Assembly (NCBI GenBank): GCA_965116925.1
Contig: OZ220744.1
Span: 416,001 to 480,000, forward strand
Source of the DNA: Candidatus Poribacteria bacterium
GTDB taxonomy: Bacteria; Poribacteria; WGA-4E; PCPOR2b
DNA: 64,000 nt
Direction: 5' to 3'
How positions within the stretch are numbered: position 1 is the first letter of the stretch; every line of letters begins with the position of its first letter. The position numbers and the translations under genes are program-made. A model generated the notes under the pieces. It was not told the origin of the DNA. It saw only the letters and a list, made by a program, of their open reading frames with translations, and ran no database searches. This document shows positions 14,380 to 50,033 of this stretch, one piece after another.

Positions 14380-14443
14380 AAATGCCATCAACATACAATC
14401 GTTTCAAGATCGGAATTTAATAAAGAAAGGATCTGTTCAAATC

Positions 14444-15383: not shown

Positions 15384-17207
15384 ATGTATCTCACCAAACA
15401 TTCCAGTATGAACCAGTCCAAAAACAGGCTATATCTTTTGTTCGGTCTGCTTGTCATCTATCTGTTGTTGACGGCTGTGACTGTCTTCGCCCAAGATGCG
15501 ACTGACACAGAGTACCGCCCCTTCCCGGGGATCGGCAGCCGTAACGCCGCTTGGATTGCTGCACAGCTGCATCTGTTATTCGGTTCCTTCATCTTGGGTG
15601 TTCCAATGTTCGCGGTTGTCATTGAGTTTGTCGGAATGAAAACAAAGGACAAGCGGTATGATAAGATGGCGCAGGAGTTCATCAAACTTTGCATGGGAGC
15701 GTTCTCAACGACAGCTCTGATGGGGGGTGTACTCGTTTTTATCCTCATCTGGTGCTACCCGAAAGTGATGAACAAACTGTCAGGAATCTTCGGTCCGACA
15801 ATGATTTTCTACGTCATCCTGTTCTTTGGGGAGACCTTTACGCTGTATCTCTACTCTTACGGGTGGGATCGGATGCAGGGCAAGGTGTCGAAAATGTGGC
15901 ACCTCTTTCTCGGTGTGCTCCTGAACGTATTTGGTACAGCGATTATGTTTGTCTCTAACTCTTGGCTGACGTATCAAACTAGCCCAGCGATTATGGGACC
16001 CAAACCCGCCCACGAGGCAATTCCACTCCACGATGAGTCGGGCGCATTTATCGGGACGCTGTGGCAGGCAGTCAATAATTACACGTGGATGCCTGTCAAT
16101 ATCCACCGCCTCATTGGAAATATTGCTTTCGGCGGTGCTATCGTCGGTGCTTATGCCGCCTTTCGTTTCTTGGCTGCCAAAACGCAGGAAGACAGGGCGC
16201 ATTACGACTGGATGGGATATACGGGCAATTTTATCGCGCTGTGTGGGTTGATTCCACTGCCATTTGCCGGCTATTGGCTAGGACGAGAAATCTATATGTT
16301 TAACCAGACGATGGGCATCAACATGATGGGAAGCCTCTTCTCGTGGCTGTTTATTATTCAGGCAGTCATGATTGGGGTACTGTTCATCGGAGCGAATTAC
16401 TATCTCTGGTCTGGCATGACCCGCATCGCAGGCGGGGAGGTATACGCCCGTTTTCGTCCTTACATGATCGCTATCATCGTTCTATCTGTCGCCATCTGGA
16501 TGACACCGCGCACACTCATTGTGACGCCTACGGAGTTGGCTGCAATGGGGGGACCCAATCACCCGCTCGTTGGACTTTTCGGCTTGATGACAGCGAAGAA
16601 CACGGTTGTTAATCTCATTATCTTGACCACCTTTCTCAGCTTTCTGTTTTACCGTCGATCCGGTAAAACACCGACAGTGAGTTGGCGCAAAGCGGGCAAT
16701 ATAACCATCGCAGTTACTTTTGGGCTAGCTGTCGCAGCGATTGTTATAATTGGAATCGTAGGGTTCAGGGTGAACACTGACTTCCGTGTCAATGTCCTAA
16801 CGCCAATACAAGTGCTGGTCGCATTAGCAGTAATGATTGTGGTGACAGTGATTGACTTGATTATGTATCGAAAGGCGATGCGTTCAAGCGAAATCAACTG
16901 GGGGCAAATGACAGAGCGGTCTCAATATGTGCTGATTCTGCTCGCCATTACCTTTACCTCACTGATGGGGTTGATGGGCTACGCACGGTCGGGGCTCCGG
17001 GAGGCGTGGCATATTTTCGGTGTAATGCCTGACACCTCGCCCGATGCACACACCCCTCTGCTCGCGGATGCCGTTAACATGATTGCCGTTATTATAGTGA
17101 TTTTCTTCGCTTTGGTAGGTTTTATTTTCTGGCTCGGTTTGTGGGGCGATAAGAAAAAAGAGGGACAGCCACCCGTTGAAGCAGAAGCCACTACAGGAGA
17201 TGATTAA
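15384..17207 (+). CDS. Cytochrome bd-like oxidase subunit I homolog (CydA-like), no cydB nearby
   Basis: Helix I His (QLHLLF), FF.ET, NSWL..P, NIHRL His, LMTAKN Met and MGYARS in place of GWxxxExGRQPW; no recognisable Q-loop; N-terminal signal-like segment. Confidence 0.8.
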   Translation: MYLTKHSSMNQSKNRLYLLFGLLVIYLLLTAVTVFAQDATDTEYRPFPGIGSRNAAWIAAQLHLLFGSFILGVPMFAVVIEFVGMKTKDKRYDKMAQEFIKLCMGAFSTTALMGGVLVFILIWCYPKVMNKLSGIFGPTMIFYVILFFGETFTLYLYSYGWDRMQGKVSKMWHLFLGVLLNVFGTAIMFVSNSWLTYQTSPAIMGPKPAHEAIPLHDESGAFIGTLWQAVNNYTWMPVNIHRLIGNIAFGGAIVGAYAAFRFLAAKTQEDRAHYDWMGYTGNFIALCGLIPLPFAGYWLGREIYMFNQTMGINMMGSLFSWLFIIQAVMIGVLFIGANYYLWSGMTRIAGGEVYARFRPYMIAIIVLSVAIWMTPRTLIVTPTELAAMGGPNHPLVGLFGLMTAKNTVVNLIILTTFLSFLFYRRSGKTPTVSWRKAGNITIAVTFGLAVAAIVIIGIVGFRVNTDFRVNVLTPIQVLVALAVMIVVTVIDLIMYRKAMRSSEINWGQMTERSQYVLILLAITFTSLMGLMGYARSGLREAWHIFGVMPDTSPDAHTPLLADAVNMIAVIIVIFFALVGFIFWLGLWGDKKKEGQPPVEAEATTGDD

Positions 17208-17225
17208 CAATCAAACACAATTGGA

Positions 17226-18737
17226 ATGAGAGCGATGCAAAGAAAACTAATTAGAATTATCTGCCTAATTTTAATGGTTGTGAGTTTTTTCGCCTATATC
17301 GCGAAAGCCCCGGCTTTCCCGATCGCTTCGGAAAACCTGCTGCCATGGTCAGCGTGGTTTTTCATCTTTGCGTTGGCGAGTATCATACTCTGGCAGAGCG
17401 TGGTCAAACTCCTGTCATTTGCGTTGATGGTGATCTGGTTCTATGCGTTCGCTGCCAGCATTGTGCCAGAGACATCAACTGCAACGTTTGACCCTAACGC
17501 CGTAGACCGGACGCCGGATGCGTTTATTGAGGTTGGAGAGATAATCTTTAACGGAAAAGGAAAGTGCAACACCTGTCATACACTTGATCCGTCTGCGCCA
17601 AAAAGTCGCTGTCCCGATTTAACCGATATTGGCACTCACGCTGCGACACGCCAACCGGGGAAAACCGCAAAAGAGTATCTCATCGAATCCACCTATGAAC
17701 CCCACAAATTCCTCGTCCCCGGCTACAGTAACATTATGCCACCGGTCTGGAAACCACCAATCAGTCTAACCGAGTTGGAAATCGAAACCGTTATTGCGTT
17801 CTTGCAGAGTCAGGGCGGTGAAGTGGATGTGACAGAGTTTGAGCCGCCCGTTGATATCGGAAGCGCAGCGGCTGTAGTGGAGGAATTGCCGCCCCTCCTC
17901 ACCGGCGACGTTGAACGCGGTAAAAAGGTTTTTGTAGAGGGAGCGAAGTGTATAGCGTGTCACGCCGTTGCTGGTGTAGAGCAACCCGCCGGTCAAACAC
18001 TTGATGAGGGAGTCGAAGTTGTCGCTGCACCCGACTTGACGGATATCGCTGGGTTAAACAGCCTCCGGTATATTGAGGAATCCGTCCTATTGCCAAATGC
18101 CCAAATTGTGAGCGGATACGGTTCCATTACGGTGAAAACCGGCGGTGCCACAATTCAGGGAACGCTTGTTACGCAAGATAATGAGAAGATCAGCGTGCGT
18201 GTTAAGGACGCAGCTGGCAACGAGGAAGAACGCACCATTCTATTGAACGACCTTGATCCAGAACCGATTGAAGAATTGACAGATCTGACAGGAAAAGGAT
18301 ACTTCTGGATTCAAGTAACGCTTGCCGACACGGGAGCCACCGTAAGTGGTGATCTCGTAGACGAGACCGACGAAAGCATTACGCTTCAGGTGGGTGGAGA
18401 ACCCCAGACAATTTCCAAGTCGAATGTGAAGGTTCAAGCGACGTTGATTGACTTTGATGAGAATGTTATCGTTGGGGAGTTGGTATCAGAAAATGAGGAC
18501 GAAGTCACCTTAATCGTTGATGGTGAGGAGCAGATCATTGATACATTCGATATCGACGAAGGACCGACCTACAGCCGTGCTTTCGGTAAGCGACTAGTTG
18601 TAACTTCCCCGATGCCGAATAACTTTCCGCTGTTACTGTCGGTTTCGGATATGAGCGATCTACTTGCATATCTAGCAAGCTTAACGGGTGCGATAGAAAC
18701 AACGGCGGCTGAAGAAGCAGAAGCAACCGCCGAATAA
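17226..18737 (+). CDS. Membrane-anchored diheme cytochrome c with triplicated acidic beta-domain
   Basis: Three N-terminal TM segments; CNTCH and CIACH; the second domain follows a PDL...ES.L.P.A.IV.GY...SPMP pattern. Confidence 0.8.
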   Translation: MRAMQRKLIRIICLILMVVSFFAYIAKAPAFPIASENLLPWSAWFFIFALASIILWQSVVKLLSFALMVIWFYAFAASIVPETSTATFDPNAVDRTPDAFIEVGEIIFNGKGKCNTCHTLDPSAPKSRCPDLTDIGTHAATRQPGKTAKEYLIESTYEPHKFLVPGYSNIMPPVWKPPISLTELEIETVIAFLQSQGGEVDVTEFEPPVDIGSAAAVVEELPPLLTGDVERGKKVFVEGAKCIACHAVAGVEQPAGQTLDEGVEVVAAPDLTDIAGLNSLRYIEESVLLPNAQIVSGYGSITVKTGGATIQGTLVTQDNEKISVRVKDAAGNEEERTILLNDLDPEPIEELTDLTGKGYFWIQVTLADTGATVSGDLVDETDESITLQVGGEPQTISKSNVKVQATLIDFDENVIVGELVSENEDEVTLIVDGEEQIIDTFDIDEGPTYSRAFGKRLVVTSPMPNNFPLLLSVSDMSDLLAYLASLTGAIETTAAEEAEATAE

Positions 18738-18753
18738 GGAATATTAAACCGCC

Positions 18754-19533
18754 ATGCAAAGATTATCCCTTTTCACAAAATGCCTAGTCATATTTGTTGT
18801 GCTTTGGCTCTTTTTGAAATTTTTCATCGGTGGCGTGTGGTCTGTTCCGTTACCTGCCAGTGTGATCTCAATGTATCTGGGACTTATTCTATTGGCGATT
18901 CTGGTTCACGTATCTGTCGAAGATGATAGGTTTCGAGAATTTCTGCGCCCTATCAAAGAGACTCTAGCTGATGATACTAGAAGGACAAGATGCACTGTGC
19001 TGTTCGTCCTTATCCCTTTGGTTATGCTCGGTTTAACCTTTTCCGAAATGTCGACAAAAGCAGATCCACCCGCTGCGCTGCGCACTGCCCATCCAGCTCC
19101 GCCTGATGAACTGACGTACCGCGAGAAGGTTATCGGCCCCACGCAAGAAGTAGAGAATCCTTTCCGATATCTTGAGAAAGATGACAAGGAGGCATTTAAG
19201 GCTCATGTAGAGAACGGACGCCGGGTCTATTATCAAAACTGCTTCTACTGCCACGGCGATGATCTTGATGGAGAGGGACATTTCGCTCACGGCTTCAACC
19301 CACCGCCTGCAAACTTTCAGGACCCTGGGATTATTCCGAACTTCCAAGAATCTTTCTTCTTCTGGCGTATCAGTAAAGGAGGTCCCGGTCTGCCGCCGGC
19401 TGCGACTCCTTGGGATTCTGCCATGCCGGTCTGGGAAGACCATTTGACAGAGGAGGAGATTTGGGACGTAATCCTCTTCCTCTCTGAGTACACAGGCTAT
19501 CGACCGAGAACATTCGGTGAAGCGGCGCATTAA
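18754..19533 (+). CDS. Membrane-anchored monoheme cytochrome c
   Basis: Three N-terminal TM segments; CFYCH; PPPANF; SAMPVW distal Met. Confidence 0.85.
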   Translation: MQRLSLFTKCLVIFVVLWLFLKFFIGGVWSVPLPASVISMYLGLILLAILVHVSVEDDRFREFLRPIKETLADDTRRTRCTVLFVLIPLVMLGLTFSEMSTKADPPAALRTAHPAPPDELTYREKVIGPTQEVENPFRYLEKDDKEAFKAHVENGRRVYYQNCFYCHGDDLDGEGHFAHGFNPPPANFQDPGIIPNFQESFFFWRISKGGPGLPPAATPWDSAMPVWEDHLTEEEIWDVILFLSEYTGYRPRTFGEAAH

Positions 19534-19603
19534 AAAGTATAAAACGACCCCAAATCCCGAAAAAGATTAACTGAGATGTGGAATTGGGAGCGAGAAAAAA
19601 ATA

Positions 19604-21340
19604 ATGAAAAAGCAATCCTATAAAACTTCATTCCTAATTACGGTAGCTAGTCTTATTCTATTATTAGCAGTTTTTTCGATTACAGTTTTTGCCCAAGGCA
19701 AACAGGCACCCGCAGCCTCCGAAGAAGGAAAGGCACTATATGAAGATAAGTGTGCACACTGTCACGGTATAGAAGGTGCTGGCGATGGATCTGCAGCAGA
19801 AAACCTGTTGCCAAGACCGAGAGATTTCACGCGGGGGCTCTACAAAATCCGTTCAACAGAAAGTGCTCAACTGCCGACCGATCAAGACCTCTTCGACATC
19901 ATCTCCAACGGTATGCCAGGCTCCTCTATGCCCGCTTGGGGCGAAATCCTGACGGAGGATGAACAGTGGCAGCTCGTCGCCCATATCAAAACCTTCTACG
20001 ACGGCTTTGAGGGGGCTTCTCCGCGGTTAATTGATGTGTCGGGCAAAGTTCCATATTCTGAAGAGAGCGTCGCCAAAGGAAAAGAATTTTACACCAATCT
20101 TGGGTGTGTCGATTGCCACGGCGTAGTCGGCAGAGGTGATGGTACATCTGCCCCAGATCTTACGGATGAATGGGGGTTTCGCACATGGCCCGCCAATCTT
20201 TGGGAACAGTGGAATTATCGGGGTGGGGCAACAACTGAGGATATCTTCAAGCGATTTATCGGTGGCATCGCTGGCTCACCGATGCCCTCGTTCATCTCAA
20301 GTTTCCGGCTCGGTCTGACAGATGAGGAATCGGCGCGTATGAATGAGCTAGAACTCAAAATGGATGACGACGGTCTTTCAGAGGCGGAGGAGGAAGAATA
20401 CGCAGTGCTTGAAGAAAAGCTGTTTATGTTTGAGGACATCATGCTCAACGTTGAAGAAGGTGTGGAGCTCACTCCGGACGAACAGACTAAACTCGATACA
20501 GCCCTAAAGCCGATTTTTGAAAAAAGTTGGCACCTCGCAAATTATGTGAAATCCTTAGGACCCGAAGAGCGACCGCCAGCGGCGGTTGGTGACAAAGTGC
20601 TACGCTCACAATATCGCGCAGGGGCGTTGCCGAGCATGAACGATGAAGCTTGGAATGAAATTCAAGAAGCCAGTTATTTTCCACTGGTCGGTCAAATTGT
20701 TATTGACCCGCGACAATTTAACCCCTCGATCGATTCAGTAATGGCAAAGTCGTTCTATAACGATAATGAAATCGCTTTTCTCTTCACATGGGATGATCGC
20801 ACTAAAACCCTGCCCCAGACAGATGACGAGACCGGGGAAACGGTTGAAGATGCCTTAGCAATTCAGTTTCCGGTGAAAATTTCTGAAGGTCCGACGGATC
20901 CGAAACCCTACTTTATCTATGGCGACCGCCGTCCCGTCTATCTCTGGAGTTGGAAGGTTGCCGAACCGTCAACGGTCACAGAGATGACTGCGAAGGGGAT
21001 CGATAAAGCAACAGTCCAATCTGACCAAAGCCCAATACAAGCTGAGGGTGTTTACAAAGATGGGCAATATCAATTATGGGTAAAGAGATCGCTCACAACC
21101 GATGATACAAGAAATGACGTGCAGTTTACACCGGGCGTATTTATACCCATCGCTTTTTCCGCGTGGGATGGCGCAAATGGCGATGTAAAAACGAAGCGAG
21201 CAATTTCAACGTGGTATACATTCGTCCTTGATCCTGTTCCATCAAATAAGCGATTTGTCTATCCGCCACTGATTGCCCTTATTTCTGTCGGTCTCCTTTT
21301 CGGTTTGAGAAATAGCGTCCGGAGACGACAGAATACATAG
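19604..21340 (+). CDS. Diheme cytochrome c fused to a DMSO-reductase type II / ethylbenzene dehydrogenase gamma-like heme b domain (NxrC-like), C-terminal TM anchor
   Basis: Signal peptide; CAHCH and CVDCH; FTWDD.T, DALAIQFP, KRSL.T, IAFSAWDG.N and K..ISTW motifs; C-terminal hydrophobic helix. Confidence 0.8.
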   Translation: MKKQSYKTSFLITVASLILLLAVFSITVFAQGKQAPAASEEGKALYEDKCAHCHGIEGAGDGSAAENLLPRPRDFTRGLYKIRSTESAQLPTDQDLFDIISNGMPGSSMPAWGEILTEDEQWQLVAHIKTFYDGFEGASPRLIDVSGKVPYSEESVAKGKEFYTNLGCVDCHGVVGRGDGTSAPDLTDEWGFRTWPANLWEQWNYRGGATTEDIFKRFIGGIAGSPMPSFISSFRLGLTDEESARMNELELKMDDDGLSEAEEEEYAVLEEKLFMFEDIMLNVEEGVELTPDEQTKLDTALKPIFEKSWHLANYVKSLGPEERPPAAVGDKVLRSQYRAGALPSMNDEAWNEIQEASYFPLVGQIVIDPRQFNPSIDSVMAKSFYNDNEIAFLFTWDDRTKTLPQTDDETGETVEDALAIQFPVKISEGPTDPKPYFIYGDRRPVYLWSWKVAEPSTVTEMTAKGIDKATVQSDQSPIQAEGVYKDGQYQLWVKRSLTTDDTRNDVQFTPGVFIPIAFSAWDGANGDVKTKRAISTWYTFVLDPVPSNKRFVYPPLIALISVGLLFGLRNSVRRRQNT

Positions 21341-24714: not shown

Positions 24715-24943
24715 GTGGAACGCTATAGGAATCTTAGCGGAGGGTCAGGAATCGTGGCGTATGAAAACGGTCCAGATTTCATTAGGGTCCAGTTTTCTAG
24801 TGGCTCAGTTTACCTAATACACGTATGAAAGTGCAGGCTCTGAAAACATTGAAGAGATGAAGGAATTAGCCAGCAAGGGCGAAGGACTAAACTCATTCAT
24901 CAATACAACCGTTCGCCACTATTGTGCTCGGAGAGAGCGTTAG
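24715..24943 (+). pseudogene. Frameshifted small conserved hypothetical (KTSC-like) gene
   Basis: AGGAGG RBS and GTG at 24715. Removing one A at 24816/24817 gives MERYRNLSGGSGIVAYENGPDFIRVQFSSGSVYLYTYESAGSENIEEMKELASKGEGLNSFINTTVRHYCARRER*. Confidence 0.6.
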
Positions 24944-24969
24944 TTTGCTATTGCAATAACCGAACGCCC

Positions 24970-39747: not shown

Positions 39748-39896
39748 AGTTGACAATTAACACGGATAAAAGACATTATATTTGAAACGAAGAGAAACCG
39801 AGTTTTTTCTTGAAAACTCGGTTTCTGTTGCGCGCTTTCTCAACATGAGCCAAAAATATAATACGTTAATGGAAAATCGACATTGGAGGGAGAAGG

Positions 39897-41840
39897 ATGT
39901 ATAAAAAAATCTATGTACCGGTTGACAACTCGGACCATTCCGATGCAAGCGTCAATTTCGCTGTAGAGTTCGCCAAAAAATTTCAATCGCAACTCGTTGG
40001 CTCTCATGTCTATGCCGCGAAGATGCACGATGTTCGCTTCAAACAGATGGAGTACACGCTGCCCGAAGAATATCAAGACGAAGCTGAACTTGAGAAGCAG
40101 CGCCGAATCCATGACACATTGATTACGATGGGACTTCAGTTAATCTCTGATTCCTACCTAGAAGTCATGAAGAATAAATGCGCCGAAAATGACATCCCCT
40201 TTGAAGCCAAAATGCCTGAAGGCAAACACTTCATCAAGTTGGCGGAAGACATCCAGGCGAGCGATTACGACCTCGTGATCATGGGTGCTCTCGGTATGGG
40301 AGCCGTTAAGGATAGTCTACTCGGCGGCGTTGTTGAACGGGTTGTGCGGCGTATTGAGACTGATACCCTTGTAGTCCGAAATATAGAAGCTATGCACGAG
40401 CAGAAGGGGCATATTCTCGTTGGGATCGATGGCAGCCCTGAGTCCTTTGGTGGATTGAAAACAGCAATCCGGCTCGGCAAGGCGTTCGGTAGACAGGTTG
40501 AGGCAGTTGGTGTCTACGACCCGTATCTCCACTACGTGGTTTTCAATTCGGTCGTCAGCGTCCTGACAGAGCGAGCCTCCAAAACCTTCCGATTCAAAGA
40601 GCAGGAACAATTGCACGAAGAAGTAATTGACACCGGGCTTGCCAAGATCTATCAATCCCATCTAGAGATTGCCCGGACCATCGCCAAGGAAGACCACAAC
40701 TACGACCTCAAAATCACCTTGCTGGATGGCAAAGCGTTTGAGAAGATCCTGCAATACGCCCGAAAGACTGAACCGTGGATGTTGATGCTGGGCAGAATCG
40801 GTGTCCACAGCGATCCCGATATGGACATCGGCAGCAATACCGAAAACTTACTGCGCCTTGCCCCGTGTAATGTATTCCTGTCGAGCCAGCGGTACGTTCC
40901 CAAAGTTGATGTCAGAGCGGAGGAGACGGTGGTCTGGACACAGGAAGCCTTAGATCGGATGTCAAAAGCACCACCGCAGGTGCAGGGTATCGCACGCACC
41001 GCTGTTCACCGTTTTGCCATTGAACGCGGACACTCCGTGATTACCGAGAGCGTCATTGAGCAGGCGATGGAGACCTTTATGCCGGGACGCTCAGCGGAAC
41101 GGATGACCAAGGTTGCCAAAGAGATTGCAACGCAAACGGTTTTGGATTCCAATGCGATTAAGACCTACATCTGTGGCGATTGTGGTTATGCCGCCCGCGA
41201 CCAAGAGCCCGTGAAATGTCCCGTCTGCGGCGTGGACGGTGACCGATTCCAGATGGTCGATAAAGATTCGCTCCAGAGGGTTGCGGATCAGGAGGGCGGC
41301 GTGAGTGAAGAGCAAACCTTCGACGGTGTGCGCCTCCAGTGGTCAGATCAGGCGAAAAAGGCTTTACGGAATGTCCCACGAGGATATATGCGTCGCAACG
41401 TCAAAGCGCGAATCGAAAAATCGGCGCGTGTCCAGAAAATCGGTACAATCACCAACGATTTTGCGATGCAGATCATCAACGAGAGCATGGATCAGGCGTC
41501 CGCTGTCCGCGAAGACGCGCCCGAACTGAAAGCTGTCGCACAGTCCCGTGAGTCCGCTGATACCTCCCAAGAAGAAACATTTGAGAGTTCACTTGAATGG
41601 ATGCCAGATGCCCGTGCACGGTTGGATCTCGTGCCCGCTGGGTTTATGCGAAATATCACGCAATCCCGTGTCGAGCAGCGAGCGCAGGAAGCGAACCTCA
41701 CGACAATCAACCTAGATTTTGCAGCGCAGGTGATTGAGGAAGGACGGAGTCTGGACAATGAGGTGCTTGGGACATATTACCAACAGGCCGAACACCCTGC
41801 TGAAGCGGAGAGTGATGAAGAGGAGCCGACGCAAGCGTAA
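39897..41840 (+). CDS. Tandem Usp domains + rubredoxin-like CxxC/CxxC + three PCP_red-like domains
   Basis: YKKIYVPVD.S and ILVGIDGS Usp starts; G..G...G motifs; CGDCGY...CPVCG; three W(T/S/M)..A.....P...R repeats. Confidence 0.8.
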   Translation: MYKKIYVPVDNSDHSDASVNFAVEFAKKFQSQLVGSHVYAAKMHDVRFKQMEYTLPEEYQDEAELEKQRRIHDTLITMGLQLISDSYLEVMKNKCAENDIPFEAKMPEGKHFIKLAEDIQASDYDLVIMGALGMGAVKDSLLGGVVERVVRRIETDTLVVRNIEAMHEQKGHILVGIDGSPESFGGLKTAIRLGKAFGRQVEAVGVYDPYLHYVVFNSVVSVLTERASKTFRFKEQEQLHEEVIDTGLAKIYQSHLEIARTIAKEDHNYDLKITLLDGKAFEKILQYARKTEPWMLMLGRIGVHSDPDMDIGSNTENLLRLAPCNVFLSSQRYVPKVDVRAEETVVWTQEALDRMSKAPPQVQGIARTAVHRFAIERGHSVITESVIEQAMETFMPGRSAERMTKVAKEIATQTVLDSNAIKTYICGDCGYAARDQEPVKCPVCGVDGDRFQMVDKDSLQRVADQEGGVSEEQTFDGVRLQWSDQAKKALRNVPRGYMRRNVKARIEKSARVQKIGTITNDFAMQIINESMDQASAVREDAPELKAVAQSRESADTSQEETFESSLEWMPDARARLDLVPAGFMRNITQSRVEQRAQEANLTTINLDFAAQVIEEGRSLDNEVLGTYYQQAEHPAEAESDEEEPTQA

Positions 41841-41849
41841 AATCATGTC

Positions 41850-42731
41850 TTGAATATCAATTTAGATCGGAGTTTGCCAATGCACCCCAGAGATCCGTTA
41901 CATTTTGGGGAAATTCTTGTGTGTCTCGACGGCTCAAGCTATTCGCAGGCGGCGGTCGAATATGCCACGCAAATCGCTCTTGAACATAACGCCTCACTAA
42001 CCGGCATCGGGGTGATCGACCTACCGGGCCTTCAACGTGCAAGTGGGCCCGCACCGATTGGAGCGATGCACTACGATCAACTTGCTGACCAGCAGCACTT
42101 CCAAGAGACGCGAAAGATAGTGGCTAGTATCCTTAAAGACTTTGGGAACACCTGTCAGGAAAAGGGAATCCACCACTCCATCCATTCAGAGATGGGCAGC
42201 CCATTTCGGGAAATTATCGAAGAATCGAAATTCCACGATTTTATTATGATCGGGCAGAAGACCTTTTTTCGGTATAACGTCAGACACGAACCGGGGAACA
42301 CCTTAGACCGAATTCTTCATAACGGGCTGACCGCGGTCCTTGCAGTACCCGATTCTGTCAGACCGATTAAAAAAGTGCTCGTCGCTTATGATGGCAGCGT
42401 CCAAGTTACCAAAGCAATCCAGATGTTTCTCCTACTTCATATCTGGAATCAGTGCGACATCACCCTCCTGAATGTCAACAATAATGCCAGTCGTGGAATA
42501 CAGTTGCTCGGCAGGCTTGGTGATTACTTCCGTAGGTATGGGGTGCAGACCGAGAAGGTCCAATTGAAAGGGAGGACAGATGAAGCCATCCTGTCCTACA
42601 TCCAAGAACATGAAATTGATCTGCTCGTCATGGGAGCGTATGGGAAGCGAAGCGTATCCGAGTTCGTCTTCGGCAGCGTAACCAAATCCTTAGTAGCGCA
42701 GGCGGGTATTCCGTTGTTTATCTATCATTAA
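41850..42731 (+). CDS. Tandem universal stress protein
   Basis: ILVCLDGS, VLVAYDGS, DLLVMGAYG...GSVT; the start may be ATG 41880. Confidence 0.88.
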   Translation: MNINLDRSLPMHPRDPLHFGEILVCLDGSSYSQAAVEYATQIALEHNASLTGIGVIDLPGLQRASGPAPIGAMHYDQLADQQHFQETRKIVASILKDFGNTCQEKGIHHSIHSEMGSPFREIIEESKFHDFIMIGQKTFFRYNVRHEPGNTLDRILHNGLTAVLAVPDSVRPIKKVLVAYDGSVQVTKAIQMFLLLHIWNQCDITLLNVNNNASRGIQLLGRLGDYFRRYGVQTEKVQLKGRTDEAILSYIQEHEIDLLVMGAYGKRSVSEFVFGSVTKSLVAQAGIPLFIYH

Positions 42732-42740
42732 CCGAGATTT

Positions 42741-43625
42741 ATGAAAACCTATAAAGACCTCCCCGCCGATGGCGGCTCTAACATCGTTGAACAAGTAACA
42801 CAGCAAGTCAATCGTTTGCAAAAGCGACTTGCGTCAGTTGGTAATACTGTTGCTATCATGAGTGGAAAGGGTGGCGTGGGCAAGAGTTCAGTCACTGCAA
42901 ACCTCGCGTCGGCACTTAGGTTGCGCGGGCACACTGTTGGTGTGATTGATGCTGACATCAACGGTCCCTCGATTGCTAAAATGATGGGCGTCAGAGGACA
43001 GCAAATTGATTATGGAACTGACGGTGTTAAACCCGCTCTCAGTCCACTTGGGGTCAAGGTAATGTCGATGGATTTATTCCTCAAGGACGACGAAACGCCA
43101 GTTCTCTGGGAAGCCCAAACACAGAAGGATGCCTTCACTTGGCGGGGGACAATGGAAATGAGTGCCCTCCGCGAATTTCTCTCCGATACTGAGTGGGGAA
43201 CCCTTGACTATTTGTTGATCGATCTTCCCCCCGGTACTGACCGTTTGCCCAATCTCGTCGATCTCCTACCGAATCTTGGTGGTACAGTTGTTATTACAAT
43301 CCCTTCTGGGGTGTCGCAGCTTGTCGTAAAAAAGTCGCTGACAATGGCAAAAAAACTGCTCAACGCACCGGTGATCGGCGTCGTCGAAAATATGGCCGCT
43401 TATGTCTGCGCTGATTGTGGTAAAACCGAAGATCTGTTCCCATCGGGGCACACAGAGGAGATGGCACGTCAATTTGACGTTTCCCTACTCGGCAAAATCC
43501 CTTTCGATCCACGAATCTCTATTGCAGCGGATGAAGGCACTGTATTCGTCGATCAATACGGGGATACTCCCGCAGGACAAACATTTTTCGGCATCACAGA
43601 TAAAATTCGGATGTTCTTTAAATAG
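42741..43625 (+). CDS. Mrp/NBP35/ApbC family Fe-S carrier ATPase
   Basis: SGKGGVGKS, DADI.GPS, W..LDYL.IDLPPGT, ENM...CADCG. Confidence 0.9.
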   Translation: MKTYKDLPADGGSNIVEQVTQQVNRLQKRLASVGNTVAIMSGKGGVGKSSVTANLASALRLRGHTVGVIDADINGPSIAKMMGVRGQQIDYGTDGVKPALSPLGVKVMSMDLFLKDDETPVLWEAQTQKDAFTWRGTMEMSALREFLSDTEWGTLDYLLIDLPPGTDRLPNLVDLLPNLGGTVVITIPSGVSQLVVKKSLTMAKKLLNAPVIGVVENMAAYVCADCGKTEDLFPSGHTEEMARQFDVSLLGKIPFDPRISIAADEGTVFVDQYGDTPAGQTFFGITDKIRMFFK

Positions 43626-43628
43626 AAA

Positions 43629-43773
43629 TAGGAGTTACGCACTTCAGTTTGTAGTAGCGCAATTCATTGCGCGTTCTTCCCTCCCCCCGCTTGCGGGGGA
43701 TAGAGGGGGGGTGGGGATTTAGGGGGTTAAAAATAAAAAACTCGCCCCGCGTGCTAAATTTGCGTAAATCCTG
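43629..43773. mobile_element. MITE-like element with TAGGA(C/G)TTACGCA termini carrying a GTAG REP
   Basis: TAGGAGTTACGCA ... TGCGTAAATCCTG; the first ~80 bp are an inverted near-copy of 58366-58446. Confidence 0.65.
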
Positions 43774-43792
43774 ATATAAACGGAGTCAACCA

Positions 43793-44296
43793 ATGAAATT
43801 CTTATGTCTTGAATGCAACACAGCGATGGAATTTAAGGAAACAGCGACGCCGGATCAAGGTTCGTTGACGGCGATCTTCGAGTGCCCAGATTGCTTTGCC
43901 GAGTTCGCAATGCACATGAACCCGTGGGAAACCCAGATGCTAAAGTCCCTCGATGTTCAACTCGGTAGCAAGAGCGAAGCAGCACAGCCAATGCAAGTTG
44001 TACGTTCCTTCTTGAGTGAAAAGAACCCCGAAAATCTGACTGCCGATGCCCCAACAGTATCCGCCGAAGGCGGCGGGAAATGCCCGTTCACATCGGTTGT
44101 AGCGGAAGCATTTCAAGAGCCAGCGGAGGCGACCGGACCGGTATGGACACCGGAGGCGTTAGCGCGTTTGGAACGCGTGCCTAGTTTCGTCCGCTCGATG
44201 GCAAAGACCGGCATCGAAGAGTTTGCCCGCGAAAATGGGCACACCGAAATCACCGTCGAAGTAATGGATAGTGCCCGTGGTAACTTTGGAATGTAG
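43793..44296 (+). CDS. Zinc-ribbon (CxxC..CxxC) + PCP_red domain protein
   Basis: CLEC...CPDC; KCPF; C-terminal WTPEALARLERVPSFVRSMAK..IE.FA...G...IT. Confidence 0.78.
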   Translation: MKFLCLECNTAMEFKETATPDQGSLTAIFECPDCFAEFAMHMNPWETQMLKSLDVQLGSKSEAAQPMQVVRSFLSEKNPENLTADAPTVSAEGGGKCPFTSVVAEAFQEPAEATGPVWTPEALARLERVPSFVRSMAKTGIEEFARENGHTEITVEVMDSARGNFGM

Positions 44297-44308
44297 GAGC
44301 TTATCACA

Positions 44309-45739
44309 GTGGAAACAGAAGACATTCGTCTCACACAAGCCTCAATAGATCTACCATGGTATCCAATTTCACTGCCAGCCATATCAGCGAAGGTTGCCAA
44401 AAAAAATGGTAGGCGGAAACGCCCTGAGTATGATACACATCAACCGATGGAGGTTGTTCGGAGAATTGTGAATCCATTCGGCGAGGAAATTGTACAGGTC
44501 GATGGGGAAATTCCTGTGGAGCTGCCTGTTAATGATGGCGATAGATTTCTGTTTATTAGCTACGATCAGAGCCATCTCACTCACGGATTGCATAAGTATC
44601 CCGCCAAGTTTTTTCCCGAATTACCGCGATGGCTAATCAAACGGTATTCTCAAGAAAACGATATAATTCTTGACCCGTTTTCGGGGAGCGGGACCACAAA
44701 TGTTGAGGCACTCTTGCTAAAACGGCACTCTGTTGGTATTGATGTCGATCCATTTTCTCGTTTCATCTCAACAGTCAAGGTAAGGCCCTTAGCTGAAAAG
44801 GAACTCGTAGAAGCTCAAGAATCTCTGTTTAACGCTGTAGAAGCCTATCAACCCGCTTTGGTATTAGAATCGGATATACCGTCCTTCCCTTACAGGGATA
44901 ATTGGTTCAACAGAGAAATAACTCTAGAATTGGCTTACTTAAAAAAGGTTATTGAGTCCCTTGATAAGAGCGAGCGCGTTAAAGATTTCTTCAAAGTCTG
45001 TTTCTCCTCGATTATCCGTTCCGTGTCCAATGCTGATGATAATTGCACAAGGACTGTCATTCGCAAGGTACTGAAAAAGCAGGTCAATCCTTCCGATGCC
45101 CTGAGAAAATTTGTGGAAACGGTGCTAGTTAAAGTTCCCAAGATGATAGAATTTTCTCAAAACGTACCACAAGACATAACCGTAAGTTTTCCAGAAAACA
45201 TGGACGCACGGAATATCAGGTACGATGGAGGAACTTTTGACTTGGTTCTAACTTCACCGCCGTATGCAAATGCAGTTGATTATCCGAGAACCCATCAACT
45301 GGAGCTCTATTGGTTGGGATTTGCCGATGGTACTTTAACGCCATTAAAGAAACAGCATGTTGGAACAGAAAGTGTTTCATCACAGGATTATCGGACCCGA
45401 CATCAGATCGGTGTGAAGGAGGCGGATAGTGTCATTGAGAAGATTTTTGAACAGGATCCAAGACGGGCGTATATCGCTTTCAAATACTTAGACGATATGC
45501 GGAAAAATCTGTCCGAAGTTTATTCGGTGTTACGCGATGGAGGGCGATACATCATTGTCGTTGGCAATAATCGTATGCGTGGCCAGCTATTTGAAAGTTG
45601 GAAGTATCTGATGACGTTGGCAGAAAACATCGGATTTGAGATTGAAAACTATTTCGGTTCAGAAATTATCAAGCATTTTATTAAAGTCCCCAGAGCGGAA
45701 CGGATCAACACAGACTGGATTCTGGTACTCAGAAAATGA
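44309..45739 (+). CDS. Amino (probably N4-cytosine) DNA methyltransferase
   Basis: H.YPAKF, LDPFSGSGTT (motif I) before TSPPY (motif IV). Confidence 0.88.
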   Translation: METEDIRLTQASIDLPWYPISLPAISAKVAKKNGRRKRPEYDTHQPMEVVRRIVNPFGEEIVQVDGEIPVELPVNDGDRFLFISYDQSHLTHGLHKYPAKFFPELPRWLIKRYSQENDIILDPFSGSGTTNVEALLLKRHSVGIDVDPFSRFISTVKVRPLAEKELVEAQESLFNAVEAYQPALVLESDIPSFPYRDNWFNREITLELAYLKKVIESLDKSERVKDFFKVCFSSIIRSVSNADDNCTRTVIRKVLKKQVNPSDALRKFVETVLVKVPKMIEFSQNVPQDITVSFPENMDARNIRYDGGTFDLVLTSPPYANAVDYPRTHQLELYWLGFADGTLTPLKKQHVGTESVSSQDYRTRHQIGVKEADSVIEKIFEQDPRRAYIAFKYLDDMRKNLSEVYSVLRDGGRYIIVVGNNRMRGQLFESWKYLMTLAENIGFEIENYFGSEIIKHFIKVPRAERINTDWILVLRK

Positions 45740-45748
45740 GATAGAAAC

Positions 45749-46270
45749 ATGAAGATAGCTGAAGAGAGAGGCCGACAAGCATCGATAGATGGCTTTGCAC
45801 ATGAGCACATTGTTGTTGGGCTTTTGATGAAAAGATACCAGAACGTTTCGTTAGTTGATTTGCCTCTATCAACCTATGATATAATCATCGTCCAAAAAGA
45901 TGAAGATGGAAATGATGATATTATTCGAGCTCAAGTCAAGACTGCGACTAGCAGTATTAGCTTTACTGGAGGTTCCAGAGGAGGCGTGGATAGGGAGTAT
46001 AAATCAGGAGTTAAAGAGTATATACAATCGCCAGAAACCGCAGATGTTGTAATTGGTGTTCATCCTATGAGCAACAATTCGTTTGGACTCTATTTTGTTC
46101 CAACTGTTCTTATTAAATCTCTGGATCAGAAAAGTATTTCCATTAACAAGATCAGTGATTTGAAGGAGAATTATTTTATTCTGGAGAACTGTAAAAATTC
46201 AGAGTTGATAATCAGGAAATGCGAAGAATACGGAATCCTCCAGAGGCGTGAACAATATACTCTCTATTAA
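45749..46270 (+). CDS. PD-(D/E)xK family endonuclease, probable cognate restriction enzyme
   Basis: G.AHE, P.S.YDII...RAQVKT; adjacent to the MTase; visibly AT-richer. Confidence 0.7.
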   Translation: MKIAEERGRQASIDGFAHEHIVVGLLMKRYQNVSLVDLPLSTYDIIIVQKDEDGNDDIIRAQVKTATSSISFTGGSRGGVDREYKSGVKEYIQSPETADVVIGVHPMSNNSFGLYFVPTVLIKSLDQKSISINKISDLKENYFILENCKNSELIIRKCEEYGILQRREQYTLY

Positions 46271-46386
46271 TATCCAATCCTATCTATCTTTGTGGGAGAT
46301 ACATTTTCTGTTCACAGTCGCTCACTAGCTATGATGTGAAATGAGGTGTAAAAATAAAACCTCCCATTTGTAAAATCGTATAAAAC

Positions 46387-46932
46387 GTGATAAGCGGTTT
46401 TGCCCTTACATTTCAATCACTTATGGCTCTAATTGTCGAACTCTTCATCCGTTGGATACATCTTACTGCCGCAATCGTTTGGTTGGGCGGAATCTTTTTT
46501 TCTATCAGCGTTGCAACACCGATTTTGAGGAAGCGTTTTCAAATCCTTGAAAGCGTCCAACATGGGGCCGCGATCCGGAATCGTTTAAGGCATATTATCC
46601 GTTTCACAATCCACATACTCCTAATCACCGGCGCGATGAACCTGTTCATCGTCGGATTGAACACGCAGATGCGCTTTTCTCACGACCGTAGCTATTTTGT
46701 CGTTTTTATCATGAAACTTGCTTTTGTAGGATTGATGACGCTGTTTCATAGCCTGCATATCGCAGTCTTCAATCGAAGGTTAGAATCGGCGGTGGCAAAC
46801 CCGAACTTTGATGCCTCAGAGGTTGCCAAGTTACAAAGGAAAGTAGACCTATTCGGAATTTTTACTATCCTTGCTGGACTTGTTGTCTTTGCATGCGCCC
46901 TGTATCTCCGCCAGATAATAGGGGATCAATAA
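46387..46932 (+). CDS. CopD-like/DUF4149-like 4-TM membrane protein
   Basis: RWIHL.AA.VWLGG.FF; LLITG; KL..V; His residues in TM segments; the start may be ATG 46423. Confidence 0.6.
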   Translation: MISGFALTFQSLMALIVELFIRWIHLTAAIVWLGGIFFSISVATPILRKRFQILESVQHGAAIRNRLRHIIRFTIHILLITGAMNLFIVGLNTQMRFSHDRSYFVVFIMKLAFVGLMTLFHSLHIAVFNRRLESAVANPNFDASEVAKLQRKVDLFGIFTILAGLVVFACALYLRQIIGDQ

Positions 46933-47042
46933 GAATACAAATCACCTCGAAGCATGTGGGCTAGTGTAATCAAAAAAACTCTGCGCTCTCTGCGCCTCTG
47001 CGGTAAAATACATGACAGCATATCAAGCTTTAAGGAACGACC

Positions 47043-48344
47043 ATGGAAACAAAAGTCCAAGCCGTTTCATGGAATATCACACGGCTATGCAATCTCAAAT
47101 GTACACACTGCTATCTCCCCGCTGGGTTTGTGGATACCAACGAGTTTCCGAGTGGATATTATCGAGATACAGAGTTGACCCAATCCCAGTGTTTCCGCGT
47201 GATTGATGAGATTGCCGAAATCAATCCCAACATCCTCCTAATTCTCACAGGTGGCGAACCGCTGCTGCGGCCTGATATTTTGAAAATATCGGATTACGCA
47301 GCTCGAACCGGATTCTTGGTGGTGATGGGCACAAACGGCGTCCTGCTGAACGATGAAACGGTTCAGCGGATGAGCGACCACGGTGTCGCTGGCGCAGGCA
47401 TCAGTCTAGATGCTGTGGATCCGGTCAATCACGACAAATTCCGAGGTATGGACGGGGCTTGGGAAGGCACGATGAACGGCGTCGAAGCCCTCAAGCGGGC
47501 GAACCTCGATTTCCTCGTGCAGACCTCTGTGACCCAATGGAATTACGATGAAATTCCACAAATCGTTGATTTTGCCTATGAACTCGGTGCGAAGGTATTC
47601 AACCTCTATTTCCTTGTCAGAACCGGCAGAGGCAAAACGGTGATGGATATCACGCCAGCTCAATATGAACGTATGCTCTCAACGCTCTTTGAATTGCAAG
47701 CGAAATATCGAGGCAAAATGCTTGTTGCGGCGAAATGTGCGCCACACTACAAACGGGTCATCTATGAGCAACAATCGGATTCGCCTTTCTTGCAAGCCTA
47801 TCCGAGCGGTACATGCCCCTGTGGTATCTACTACTGCCGGATCACACCTGAAGGCGATTTGACACCGTGCCCATATATGCCGGTAAGCGTCGGCAATCTG
47901 AAGACTGAAAGTTTTGCGACCCTCTGGAATCAATCGAAGGTTTTTCATGAACTACGAGATCGGAAATTGTTGGAAGGTAAGTGTGGAGCCTGTGAATTTC
48001 GAGACGTTTGCGGCGGTTGTCGCGCCCGTGCTTATGCCCTCACCGACAACTATCTCGCTGAAGATCCATCCTGCGAATACCAACCGGGACAGGCAGGAAA
48101 TCAAAACATCCGTTTTGAAAAAACGACGCCCTTTGCAGCTGAAACCGACTACGAGTTACAATGGACAGATGCTGCACAACAAAGATTACAGCGTGTCCCC
48201 TCCTTTGCACGGGGGATGGTCACCAAAAGCGTCGAAAAATATGCCCGTGAGCACGGCTACAATGAAATCACGCCGGAAATCATGAAAGCTGTCAAGGATC
48301 GGTTTGATAAAACGGGCATTCCGTCCTTCAGACCCCGGCGGTAA
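47043..48344 (+). CDS. Radical SAM/SPASM protein (AhbD/NirJ-like) with C-terminal PCP_red domain
   Basis: WNITRLCNLKCTHCY, LTGGEPLLR; SPASM Cys set ending CGAC....CGGCRARA...DPSC; WTDAAQQRLQRVPSFAR. Confidence 0.85.
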   Translation: METKVQAVSWNITRLCNLKCTHCYLPAGFVDTNEFPSGYYRDTELTQSQCFRVIDEIAEINPNILLILTGGEPLLRPDILKISDYAARTGFLVVMGTNGVLLNDETVQRMSDHGVAGAGISLDAVDPVNHDKFRGMDGAWEGTMNGVEALKRANLDFLVQTSVTQWNYDEIPQIVDFAYELGAKVFNLYFLVRTGRGKTVMDITPAQYERMLSTLFELQAKYRGKMLVAAKCAPHYKRVIYEQQSDSPFLQAYPSGTCPCGIYYCRITPEGDLTPCPYMPVSVGNLKTESFATLWNQSKVFHELRDRKLLEGKCGACEFRDVCGGCRARAYALTDNYLAEDPSCEYQPGQAGNQNIRFEKTTPFAAETDYELQWTDAAQQRLQRVPSFARGMVTKSVEKYAREHGYNEITPEIMKAVKDRFDKTGIPSFRPRR

Positions 48345-48508
48345 ACTATACCTGACAGACATATTTCCAAGACTCATATAAAAAGAAAGTGCAAAATACC
48401 GAAGGAAGCCGTAGGCGGGGCATCTTGCCCCGCCCGTCCGTGCCAAAAACTTAGTTTCTGTTGCACGCTTTCTTAACATGAGCCATTTTCAATTGAGGAG
48501 AGAAAATA

Positions 48509-48922
48509 ATGAGCAGTGAAAACAGAGTTGAAGAACGATTATCCGCGGTCGAAGACCGGTTGAATCGCTTAGAAGATCTACTAGTTGGTATCAGTCAGAA
48601 ACTGGATCAGAAACCTCAACCGACGGCAATTGATGAGGAGAAAGGGGAAGCACTCAAAGGTTGGGTGACCGATTACGTGTCCATGCGCTTGCAGCAACTC
48701 GTACCAGAGACGTGCGACCATCCCGCCGAAGCGAAAGCGGGAGAAGGTCCCTTTTTGGGTAACACCTCAATCCGTTGCACGGAGGAAGTCGTTCACCGTG
48801 TCAAGCGAATCCCCATCCCATTTGTTCGAGAGATGGTTATTCAGCGCGTTGCTGACAATGCCCGGCGTACGAATGTAGATGTGGTCGAAATTGATTTCTT
48901 TGAAAAAGCAGCAACCTTTTGA
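48509..48922 (+). CDS. Coiled-coil + PCP_red-like domain protein
   Basis: N-terminal heptad RL..VE.RL..LE; C-terminal TEEVVHRVKRIPIPFVREMV..RV...AR; GAGGAG RBS. Confidence 0.65.
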   Translation: MSSENRVEERLSAVEDRLNRLEDLLVGISQKLDQKPQPTAIDEEKGEALKGWVTDYVSMRLQQLVPETCDHPAEAKAGEGPFLGNTSIRCTEEVVHRVKRIPIPFVREMVIQRVADNARRTNVDVVEIDFFEKAATF

Positions 48923-49009: not shown

Positions 49010-49504
49010 ATGTCAACATATCCACTCGATGAAAATCAACGGGAAGCCTATCAAGCCTTAGCCGCTCACATTGATTACGGAACTGAGCACGGGACAATCT
49101 GCCTCGTCGGGGAGTTTCAGTCCGGCAAAACAAACTTGGTTAAGCATTTACTCAATGAAAAATTTGGCAGCTCTACAGGTTATTACGTAAACCTGAATCT
49201 GTATCTGCTCGATGAATTAGACAAGCAGCGGGCATCAATCGCTTACACCGGCGCGAAAGCAAAGATACACCTCCTGATACAGATTGCTATTGAAGACCTA
49301 CTAGACAGGCATTTCCAAATACACAAATTCCTCGTCCTTGATGCTATCGAAATGATATACTCCTACGAACTCAATCTTGTTGCCATTACCGATCGCTTTG
49401 CCCGCGATGGCAAGTGCTGCATCATCTGCGTCCCTGAAAGCAAAAAGCATAATTACTACTTCGACTTTAGCTGGGAACTTGCAGAGGCGATCCGAATCAA
49501 CTGA
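49010..49504 (+). CDS. Small P-loop protein, BrxF-like
   Basis: LVGEFQSGKT, YVNLNL.L, LVLD.IE..Y; 164 aa, consistent with the BREX-3 BrxF family as recalled. Confidence 0.5.
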   Translation: MSTYPLDENQREAYQALAAHIDYGTEHGTICLVGEFQSGKTNLVKHLLNEKFGSSTGYYVNLNLYLLDELDKQRASIAYTGAKAKIHLLIQIAIEDLLDRHFQIHKFLVLDAIEMIYSYELNLVAITDRFARDGKCCIICVPESKKHNYYFDFSWELAEAIRIN

Positions 49505-49602
49505 AAATGGAATTGGGACTGTTTATGATGCTGCTGTGAGGCACCGGTAGAACCGCTCCTGTCCATCGCCCCAGTCTTTTTGCCTATTTGTAGGTTTATT
49601 TG

Positions 49603-49806
49603 TAGGGTTATTTAGTTTTCCATTTTTTGACCGTTCGGGCTGACCCAAACCCGTAGGCGAGGCATCTGGTCTCCCCACCGTTTGTAGTAGCGCAATTCAT
49701 TGCGCGTTCTTACGCCAACTGTCGATAGCATCTTTTATCTTTGTAATCGGTTAATCCGCGTCTATCCATAATTCAGACAATAATAGGGGAGAATTAAATG
49801 ACCCTA
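49603..49806 (+). mobile_element. ~205-bp MITE, copy 1
   Basis: Termini TAGGGTTATTTAG / TTAAATGACCCTA; end-to-end near-copy of 55797-56002. Confidence 0.8.
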
Positions 49807-50033
49807 TTTATTTGACTTTGGTGTTGACTGAAATTGCGAAATGTGATATAGTTATTTAGCAATGTTATAATTGATAACCTTCCTTGATATTGAGGTGGCT
49901 TGATACAGAGAGCAACGCGAGGACGACCTAAGTAAACTCCAAGAATTGGAGATAAGCTGTAAGCGATCGGATGCTCGTGAATGCTAACATCAAGCCTACA
50001 TAGCCCACCTATACCACCAGATTGGAAAGATTC

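Follow-up and report, generated by a model that had tools for sequence, protein, structure and literature searches.

A conserved gene cluster built on a tandem Usp protein accompanies OR-N-type CydA-like oxidases and may serve their assembly

The ctaAB/sco and cydDC genes are dedicated oxidase assembly genes. OR-N proteins, which form subfamilies of the cytochrome bd superfamily (Murali, Gennis and Hemp, bioRxiv 10.1101/2021.01.16.426971), have been proposed as terminal oxidases in Nitrospira, Nitrospinota and manganese oxidisers, and neither their function nor their subunit composition is confirmed (PMC10839748); cited papers are represented here and throughout by the accessible parts of their text. 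The OR-N families and their oxidase gene block are further covered in PMC12342949 and PMC3578206, and a 'TO_1' complex has been described for Manganitrophaceae (bioRxiv 10.1101/2021.11.15.468770). The accessible text of this literature, supplements not included, does not mention accessory or maturation genes. Here we describe such a candidate set of helper genes, a cluster around a tandem universal stress protein (Usp) in a 64,000-nucleotide stretch of a Candidatus Poribacteria genome (contig OZ220744.1, positions 416,001 to 480,000, called the window; host genome of 6.47 Mb, 99% complete). Its other genes include an AhbD-like radical S-adenosylmethionine (SAM) enzyme with a SPASM domain, an Mrp/ApbC-like ATPase, a zinc-ribbon protein and a CopD-like membrane protein, and several of its products carry a small module, PCP_red. 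The named open reading frames are all present at the coordinates given below, on the + strand. The cluster is real, widely conserved and undescribed in the literature searched, a search that did not extend to the bioRxiv supplements of the two OR-N/TO_1 preprints; its genes are unnamed in the accessible text of PMC10839748, PMC12342949, PMC6606698, PMC3578206 and both preprints. As a complex-specific maturation cassette it is of a known kind, following the same logic as ctaAB/sco and cydDC, while the set of parts is unprecedented.

The helper cluster forms the end of a 45-kb co-oriented respiratory island, which holds Rieske/cytochrome b genes, a multihaem cytochrome, a CydA-like subunit with two cytochromes c and an NxrC-like protein, an ABC pair, an aa3 oxidase with ctaAB and sco, sdh and fumC. 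The CydA-like subunit (15384..17207, +; 607 residues), the likely client of the cluster, matches PF01654 with 65.9 bits over residues 53-305, has about 13-14 membrane helices (13 by a crude hydropathy scan), has cytochrome c genes as neighbours and no cydB alongside. Partial CydA homology, about 14 helices, a missing cydB and cytochrome c neighbours are the marks of OR-N proteins, and all are found here. Two membrane cytochromes c and an NxrC-like heme b/c protein (17226..21340, +) complete the oxidase module, whose gene order is the published OR-N/TO_1 order; the same arrangement occurs in Nitrospira, Nitrospina and anammox bacteria (PMC6606698).

The distribution of the Usp protein was compared with that of OR-N CydA-like proteins in samples of three phyla: 151 Nitrospirota genomes, 131 genomes from the phylum of a Rhodothermales genome and 251 from the phylum of a Dormibacterota genome (hereafter the third phylum). 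Together, these 533 genomes comprise 79 with both, two with the Usp only, none with the oxidase only and 452 with neither. In Nitrospirota the corresponding counts are 54, 2, 0 and 95 (56 genomes with the Usp, 54 with the CydA-like protein), and in the Rhodothermales phylum Usp and oxidase occur in the same 2 of 131 genomes. In the third phylum, 23 of 251 genomes contain the Usp (labelled OR-N5-type from their locus layout), and these are ranks 1-23 by OR-N profile score, with a cut-off set post hoc from a gap in the scores (E 8.5e-42 versus 8.7e-33). The 66 genomes with weaker profile matches are all without the Usp, and the four loci ranked next after the top 23 are canonical cydAB. The Usp in this phylum mostly adjoins paired short CydA-like genes, Rieske, cytochrome b and ABC transporter genes.

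The association also holds without linkage, since in genome G129 the Usp gene (0.86 Mb) is apart from the oxidase genes (0.58 and 0.65 Mb); in Nitrospira-type genomes, too, Usp and CydA-like genes are hundreds of kilobases apart. Among Poribacteria, PF08369 (the PCP_red family) and the CydA-like gene occur in the same 34 of 40 relatives, but there the genes are linked. An aa3 oxidase as the main tie is rejected, with CoxI being present in 46 of 151 Nitrospirota genomes, just 13 of which have the Usp. We regard the association between the Usp core and OR-N oxidases as strong, with high confidence. The first-pass annotation of the window had proposed service to the upstream respiratory complexes; co-occurrence agrees with this and narrows it to the CydA-like OR-N oxidase. 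Usp homologs are additionally found in Nitrospinota and SAR324.

Gene neighbourhoods, which like the profiles bear out the co-localisation expected in other genomes, were tallied for 80 genome loci of the Usp protein, the best of 570 confirmed ones. Of these, 35 are Poribacteria-like and 45 come from Calditrichia, Rhodothermales, Latescibacterota, Rokubacteria/Methylomirabilota, Binatia, Entotheonella, Dormibacterota, Nitrospirota and more; tallies on the 45 include one unpublished genome (G044), on which the headline counts do not depend. In the 31 non-Poribacteria loci of at least 20 kb, Mrp is present in 27, the radical SAM enzyme in 23, the zinc-ribbon protein in 17, a CydA-like or NxrC-like gene in 27 and CoxI in 20. 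The constant member of the cluster is the tandem Usp core; PCP_red, Mrp and the radical SAM enzyme are not constant.

The core Usp protein (39897..41840, +; 647 residues) consists of tandem Usp domains (residues 1-335), a first PCP_red module, a rubredoxin-like knuckle formed by C426, C429, C441 and C444, and two further PCP_red modules. Both PF00582 domains and the Usp fold are present, the predicted model having a pLDDT of 89 and superposing onto Rv2623 (PDB entry 3CIS) with a Z of 28.1 and an r.m.s.d. of 3.1 for 280 aligned residues; other matches include TeaD and the Usp domain of KdpD. With the tandem proteins Rv2623, TTHA0350 and UspE, and with TeaD, it shares the fold and two nucleotide-binding motifs, which we take to read G-2x-G-9x-G-(S/T). 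Both motifs are intact: G130, G133 and G143, as well as G302 and G312, are kept in 209 of 209 distinct orthologs and G299 in 202. Position 144 is a glycine in the window protein and a serine in 151 of the 209. Unlike tandem Usps described before, this protein has two pseudo-symmetric helical inserts, each bearing a pair of histidines (His44-x27-His72 and His212-x27-His240), and is strictly tied to one enzyme family. A fifth histidine, His304, lies within the second phosphate loop. Each of the five is kept in 207-208 of the 209 orthologs. Fold searches returned Usp-type folds only, leaving the helical inserts without an informative match, and the ESM Atlas yielded generic Usp and PCP_red clusters only. 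Outside Poribacteria, identity of the Usp core is mostly 59-71%, versus 43-55% for the adjacent radical SAM enzyme.

The appended parts of the Usp protein vary. PCP_red copies are missing from the Usp in six of 12 Nitrospirota loci and number up to five or six elsewhere, where they may sit at either end. Five proteins join a PNPOx-like split barrel to the Usp, and elsewhere the barrel is encoded alongside; members of this split-barrel family occur in several phyla (L065:7889-8689, L107:11560-12291, L215:8195-8932), and none was found in the host genome. An apparent Usp-PCP_red-CydA fusion in genome G540 (a 1309-residue frame) was rejected: its junction is out-of-frame sequence and the displaced module lies in a shadow frame, so a frameshift is likely.

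A further member of the cluster is the radical SAM/SPASM enzyme (47043..48344, +; 433 residues, with a C-terminal PCP_red). Its best family is TIGR04545 (haem b synthase), with 324.3 bits against an equivalog cut-off of 500. Tetrapyrrole enzymes are its best-scoring relatives (324 and 304 bits), peptide maturases reaching no more than 130 bits except GeoRSP (162). The CX3CX2C motif and the eight-cysteine SPASM motif of AhbD, taken from PMC10452713 with one spacing widened from 36-37 to 34-37, are found in 70 of 71 rows of its family and 30 of 30 AhbD rows, and are common to it and to AhbD and NirJ-type enzymes. In a quick tree rooted at the midpoint, 40 radical SAM rows separate from four Nitrospirota AhbD rows and one outgroup with an SH-aLRT of 100; this tree has a long outgroup branch, lacks archaeal AhbD, AhbC and NirJ rows, and was made after dropping 57 of 102 rows as more than 88% identical and three as too short. 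In five Nitrospirota genomes the enzyme coexists with a separate AhbD that exceeds the cut-off. The host genome has no match for ahbAB (PF17805), and no AhbD-family structure was among the matches to solved structures. Judged from its sequence, then, the enzyme is AhbD-like but probably not AhbD, being below the cut-off, in a separate clade of the quick tree, fused to PCP_red, encoded in an ahbAB-less genome and able to coexist with true AhbD. This agrees with the first-pass annotation, which allowed that an ordinary AhbD working fully without its PCP_red or its neighbours would undo its proposal.

The enzyme occurs in 54 of 56 Usp-positive Nitrospirota genomes and in 0 of 95 Usp-negative ones, two half-length TIGR04545 matches (G163 and G106, 280-284 bits) being left out of the count; in the third phylum it is present in one of the 23 Usp-positive genomes. 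Its presence follows a feature of the oxidase. In an alignment of 42 CydA rows (four canonical, 38 OR-N), the four canonical ones all read T-E-x-G-R-Q-P-W. The threonine is replaced in all 38 OR-N rows, in 35 of them by arginine. The glutamate of this motif, which we take to be a haem ligand in canonical CydA, is a serine or alanine in all 20 long CydA-like subunits, which have in addition a Trp-His near the C-terminus; one further Trp-His row comes from the single third-phylum genome possessing the radical SAM enzyme. All 21 Trp-His rows are from a genome or locus with the enzyme, and the 17 rows lacking Trp-His are from 10 genomes, all without it.

Beyond the observed domain content, conservation, phylogenetic profile and separation from AhbD, we think it somewhat probable that the cluster is a dedicated, tiered assembly and maturation system that loads cofactors into OR-N oxidases. 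Its first tier, always present, would be the tandem Usp, in which two nucleotide-binding sites may be coupled to the two His-bearing helical hairpins; the Usp most likely binds haem (or a metal) and, gated by ATP, would pass it on to the CydA-like subunit. In the second tier, found with the long Trp-His subunits, the radical SAM enzyme would act on a tetrapyrrole side chain, making or tailoring the haem of these subunits. The third tier is optional: Mrp and its zinc-ribbon partner probably supply [4Fe-4S] clusters to the radical SAM enzyme, and CopD-like, split-barrel and ABC-transporter helpers may be added, varying by lineage. PCP_red would be a small reused module of variable copy number, probably for protein-protein contacts, and the core appears to work without it on the Usp. 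Haem as the cofactor is suggested by the best family of the radical SAM enzyme being haem b synthase, by the split-barrel fusions, by chdC in 3 of 80 loci and by the Cys-Pro-Phe/Tyr motif of the zinc-ribbon protein, kept in 55 of 55 rows. A wider proposal is possible but tentative: that the Usp serves every OR-N oxidase as an obligate, ATP-gated insertase of haem or metal, that the long Trp-His subunits carry a new haem derivative or covalent cofactor made by the AhbD-like enzyme, and that PCP_red is a general adaptor of tetrapyrrole enzymes outside photosynthesis.

Several points weigh against this assembly scheme. We infer ligand binding, ATP use, physical contacts and all its chemical steps. 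Co-occurrence would look the same whether the Usp were an assembly factor, a regulator or a soluble subunit, and genomes within one phylum are kin, so that the counts overstate independence. Genomes G062 and G195 have the Usp and no oxidase match, and in Poribacteria and Rokubacteria the cassette lies nearer to the aa3 cox genes than to the CydA-like gene. Spaced by 28 residues on a helical hairpin, the paired histidines might bind a metal instead of haem, and copper would suit the CopD-like, SCO and cupredoxin-like neighbours no less well than haem. Haem b supply does not require the radical SAM enzyme, because hemE, hemH and chdC are all present in the host genome. There, chdC belongs to a block with DUF420, HEAT-repeat and 124-residue protein genes that is distant from the cluster (G000 C1 4397122-4399225); in two relatives (L015 and L016) this block lies directly behind the cluster, and the 124-residue gene is near it in 18 of 80 loci. 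A complex prediction for Usp residues 1-400 with the radical SAM enzyme scored 0.00 twice, with controls likewise unfolded, and is evidence neither way.

The Usp accompanies OR-N in 79 of 79 oxidase-positive genomes, which makes it the obvious factor to add when these oxidases are expressed in a foreign host, and cleanly marks OR-N off from canonical cytochrome bd. The cluster also offers a defined task for a Usp, suggests a candidate radical SAM reaction on tetrapyrroles that would be new, and places PCP_red for the first time in a setting other than chlorophyll synthesis; the composition and requirements of the terminal oxidase of Nitrospira thereby become open to testing.

The main rival, which we consider rather unlikely, is that the Usp is a nucleotide- or redox-sensing regulatory subunit on the cytoplasmic face of OR-N oxidases, the radical SAM enzyme, Mrp and zinc-ribbon protein being separate helpers. 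TeaD regulates its transporter, and the Usp domain acts likewise in KdpD. Such a subunit would have the same co-occurrence profile, and the intact nucleotide-binding motifs in both domains, the fold matches to TeaD and KdpD among others and the rubredoxin-like knuckle are consistent with it. So is abundance: in the proteome of N. marina a 699-residue Usp, adjoining a 460-residue SPASM enzyme, is represented by 97-132 spectra versus 18-44 for the radical SAM enzyme (PMC8115632); this Usp is a probable ortholog, assigned by length and by an adjacency like that in Nitrospira loci, in a study of one stress, low O2. However, the near-invariant histidines, the conservation above that of the adjacent enzyme and the split-barrel fusions suggest a ligand site, and the N. 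marina Usp is unchanged with oxygen (log2 change -0.01), unlike four ordinary Usps that rise 1.8- to 263-fold at low O2 (PMC8115632). Three PCP_red proteins in the same proteome, of 159, 257 and 328 residues, are also constant, the first being encoded two genes from bd-like_2 (PMC8115632). These constant levels argue against a low-oxygen backup or general stress role, and weaken a reading of the Usp as a stress sensor. In RNA runs X1 and X3, flat, DNA-like coverage of the region is seen on 10-kb contigs; in run X5 the helper genes appear in short contigs with the inserted methyltransferase (see below) uncovered, which may only reflect strains without it.

A different reading takes the PCP_red modules as the organising element. 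PF08369 (cut-off 32.5 bits) matches the Usp protein with 95.9 bits over three stretches (40935..41066, 41340..41459 and 41598..41720, all +; 44.1, 34.3 and 35.2 bits), the zinc-ribbon protein with 70.6 bits (module at 44144-44278, +) and the radical SAM enzyme with 62.1 bits (48162-48296, +), so that the reading frames and the identification of the module made from the bare sequence hold good. Of the six modules announced there in four proteins, five exceed the cut-off singly; the sixth, at 48782-48910 in a 137-residue coiled-coil protein (48509..48922, +), scores 20.5 bits (E 5e-4), below the cut-off, and is recognised by a profile from these loci. A six-frame search of the whole genome gave exactly these six matches, all in the cluster. 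The modules are 14-45% identical in pairs and fit the W(T/S) pattern described for them, the fit being loose for some: the sequence of module 1 is W-T-x-E-A...A-P-P-Q-V, and a cysteine stands in for the tryptophan at the start of the sixth. By hidden Markov model and alignment (PDB entries 2XDQ, 2YNM, 2KRU and 2L09), this is the domain of the C-terminus of BchB/ChlB of dark-operative protochlorophyllide reductase (DPOR) and of the stand-alone Asr4154; unlike in DPOR, its fusion partners here are Usp, radical SAM, zinc-ribbon and coiled-coil proteins, and its copy number is 0-6. The domain is not mentioned in the accessible text of DPOR papers PMC12022308 and PMC13474568, one of them a cryo-EM study. 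Nitrogenase-like subunits (PF00148) have no match in the host genome, with a positive Synechococcus control; at 99% completeness this means that there is no DPOR, in agreement with the absence of a chlorophyll context reported for the window. Nitrospira-type genomes contain 10-12 modules in four or five genes, and in two of them a PCP_red gene lies just upstream of a CydA-like gene.

The Mrp/ApbC-like P-loop ATPase (42741..43625, +) is an optional member of the cluster. It matches PF10609 with 257 bits and has a deviant Walker A motif (GKGGVGKS) and a C-terminal C223xxC226. It shares the P-loop ATPase and CxxC with Mrp/ApbC/NUBPL carriers and falls below the equivalog cut-offs (ApbC 181 versus 348 bits, MrpORP 259 versus 450); neither is it of the NifH/BchL type (Fer4_NifH 22.7 bits, cut-off 25; NUBPL/ParA 257). 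Unlike the ordinary carriers it is a second paralog, 38% identical to another Mrp of the host genome, with an N-terminal extension, a tie to the zinc-ribbon-PCP_red protein and a CxxC that is lost in some lineages (present in 34 of 34 Poribacteria rows and 22 of 31 others). Clean deletions of the CxxC loop occur in L051, L052, L057, L060, L062, L064, L079, L080 and L081, loci of Rokubacteria, Methylomirabilota and Binatia in which the neighbouring zinc-ribbon gene is missing too. A dedicated Mrp is found in 28 of 56 Usp-positive Nitrospirota genomes and in none of the Usp-negative ones, three weaker matches there (E 1e-57 to 1e-61) being counted as ordinary Mrp. The zinc-ribbon protein (43793..44296, +; 167 residues) has cysteines C5, C8, C31 and C34, its CP[FY] motif at C97 and the C-terminal PCP_red.

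It was proposed at first that PCP_red is a shared tag docking four proteins on an Mrp dimer, much as the tail of the B subunit may meet the L protein in DPOR, to form one ATP- and Fe-S-driven tetrapyrrole-modifying machine. In its favour, all six modules lie within one cluster; 34 of 35 Poribacteria loci have Mrp next to the gene of a PCP_red protein, three Nitrospirota genomes have it next to the zinc-ribbon-PCP_red gene, and Nitrospira-type genomes with Mrp have the 10-12 modules, two genomes without Mrp 1-2. These last are the two of five genomes tested that have no Mrp, and the Usp of both has lost PCP_red, a further point for the proposal. As an account of the cluster the docking tag is nevertheless quite unlikely: the radical SAM enzyme retains PCP_red in Mrp-less genomes, Usps carry up to five modules in loci without a nearby Mrp or radical SAM gene, half of the Usp-positive Nitrospirota genomes are without the Mrp and 22 of 23 third-phylum genomes without the radical SAM enzyme, six Nitrospirota loci have a PCP_red-less Usp, and the Mrp CxxC is lost in 9 of 31 non-Poribacteria rows.

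Still less probable is that the radical SAM enzyme modifies the oxidase protein, by a side-chain cross-link or covalent haem attachment at Trp-His, and not a free tetrapyrrole. SPASM enzymes often modify proteins, the enzyme follows the Trp-His motif and the canonical glutamate is replaced in every long subunit; yet its scores with tetrapyrrole enzymes are far above those with peptide maturases. Least probable of all is that it simply decarboxylates coprohaem without oxygen (AhbD/ChdH), standing in for ChdC at low O2, with general haem and Fe-S housekeeping genes of a respiratory island for neighbours: its best family, its full SPASM motif, as in methanogen and sulfate-reducer AhbD, and a genome in which hemE, hemH and chdC without ahbAB make Fe-coproporphyrin available all fit, and decarboxylase activity is possible, yet would leave the profile unexplained, and against it stand the low score, the separate clade, the five genomes with a true AhbD beside it, its absence from all 95 Usp-negative Nitrospirota genomes and the lack of induction in N. 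marina at low O2 (log2 change -0.66, not significant; PMC8115632).

Among the remaining genes, the CopD-like membrane protein (46387..46932, +) is an optional member with about 4-5 helices and conserved His25 and Trp32. Its CopD match is weak (26.9 bits, cut-off 32.1), so that of the neighbours named in the first-pass annotation the Usp, Mrp and radical SAM/SPASM proteins are firmly recognised, and the rubredoxin-like match (26.0 bits, cut-off 26.5) and the CopD match both fall short. The CopD-like gene adjoins the radical SAM gene in 5 of 12 Nitrospirota loci. The coiled-coil protein is nearly exclusive to Poribacteria (14 of 35 loci, versus 1 of 45 others); kinship with a small two-module Nitrospira protein was rejected, there being no likeness beyond the module. 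A protein of about 330 residues, in which three to four PCP_red modules are combined with a conserved helical tail, occurs in Nitrospirota and Rokubacteria (L155:685-1668, L156:1177-2247, L157:679-1674, L056:14866-15897) and has been seen in the N. marina proteome if it is identical to the 328-residue entry (PMC8115632).

Other genes in the run are passengers. An ordinary tandem Usp (41850..42731, +), at first taken for part of the conserved run, occurs in 6 of 35 Poribacteria loci and in none of the 45 others, and is not a member of the unit. A type II DNA methyltransferase (44309..45739, +; PADLOC MTase_II, E 1e-71; 3 of 35 Poribacteria loci) and its probable partner restriction endonuclease (45749..46270, +; 2 of 35 loci; no Pfam or PADLOC match) are inserted in the run and had been omitted from its description. 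The GC content at third codon positions is 0.42 for the methyltransferase and 0.35 for the probable nuclease, compared with 0.48-0.59 for their neighbours. This pair, sdh/fumC and a 164-residue ATPase are ruled out as members by the locus tallies; the last, a P-loop protein at 49010-49504 with a weak BrxF match, is found in 5 of 35 Poribacteria loci. Short palindromic repeats, with about 80-280 related copies in the genome, lie between genes at 39790-39860, 43629-43774, 48373-48484 and 49600-49810. Those at 43629, 48360 and 49593 are missing from a related strain in runs X1 and X3 and are thus recent insertions.

Around the oxidase module, two carboxypeptidase-regulatory-like domain proteins (14351-15193 and 22118-22900), one of them with a weak cupredoxin match, form flanks that recur in many loci and are probably the cupredoxin-like genes of PMC3578206. 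Further downstream, a second restriction-modification pair (24922-26624, a Dam-like methyltransferase and a type II nuclease) separates the ABC ATPase (23751) from its permease (26662). This ABC-2 type ATPase/permease pair of the Poribacteria island (23751-24662 and 26662-27453), which recurs beside Usp and CydA-like genes in OR-N5-type loci, is possibly a haem or cofactor exporter.

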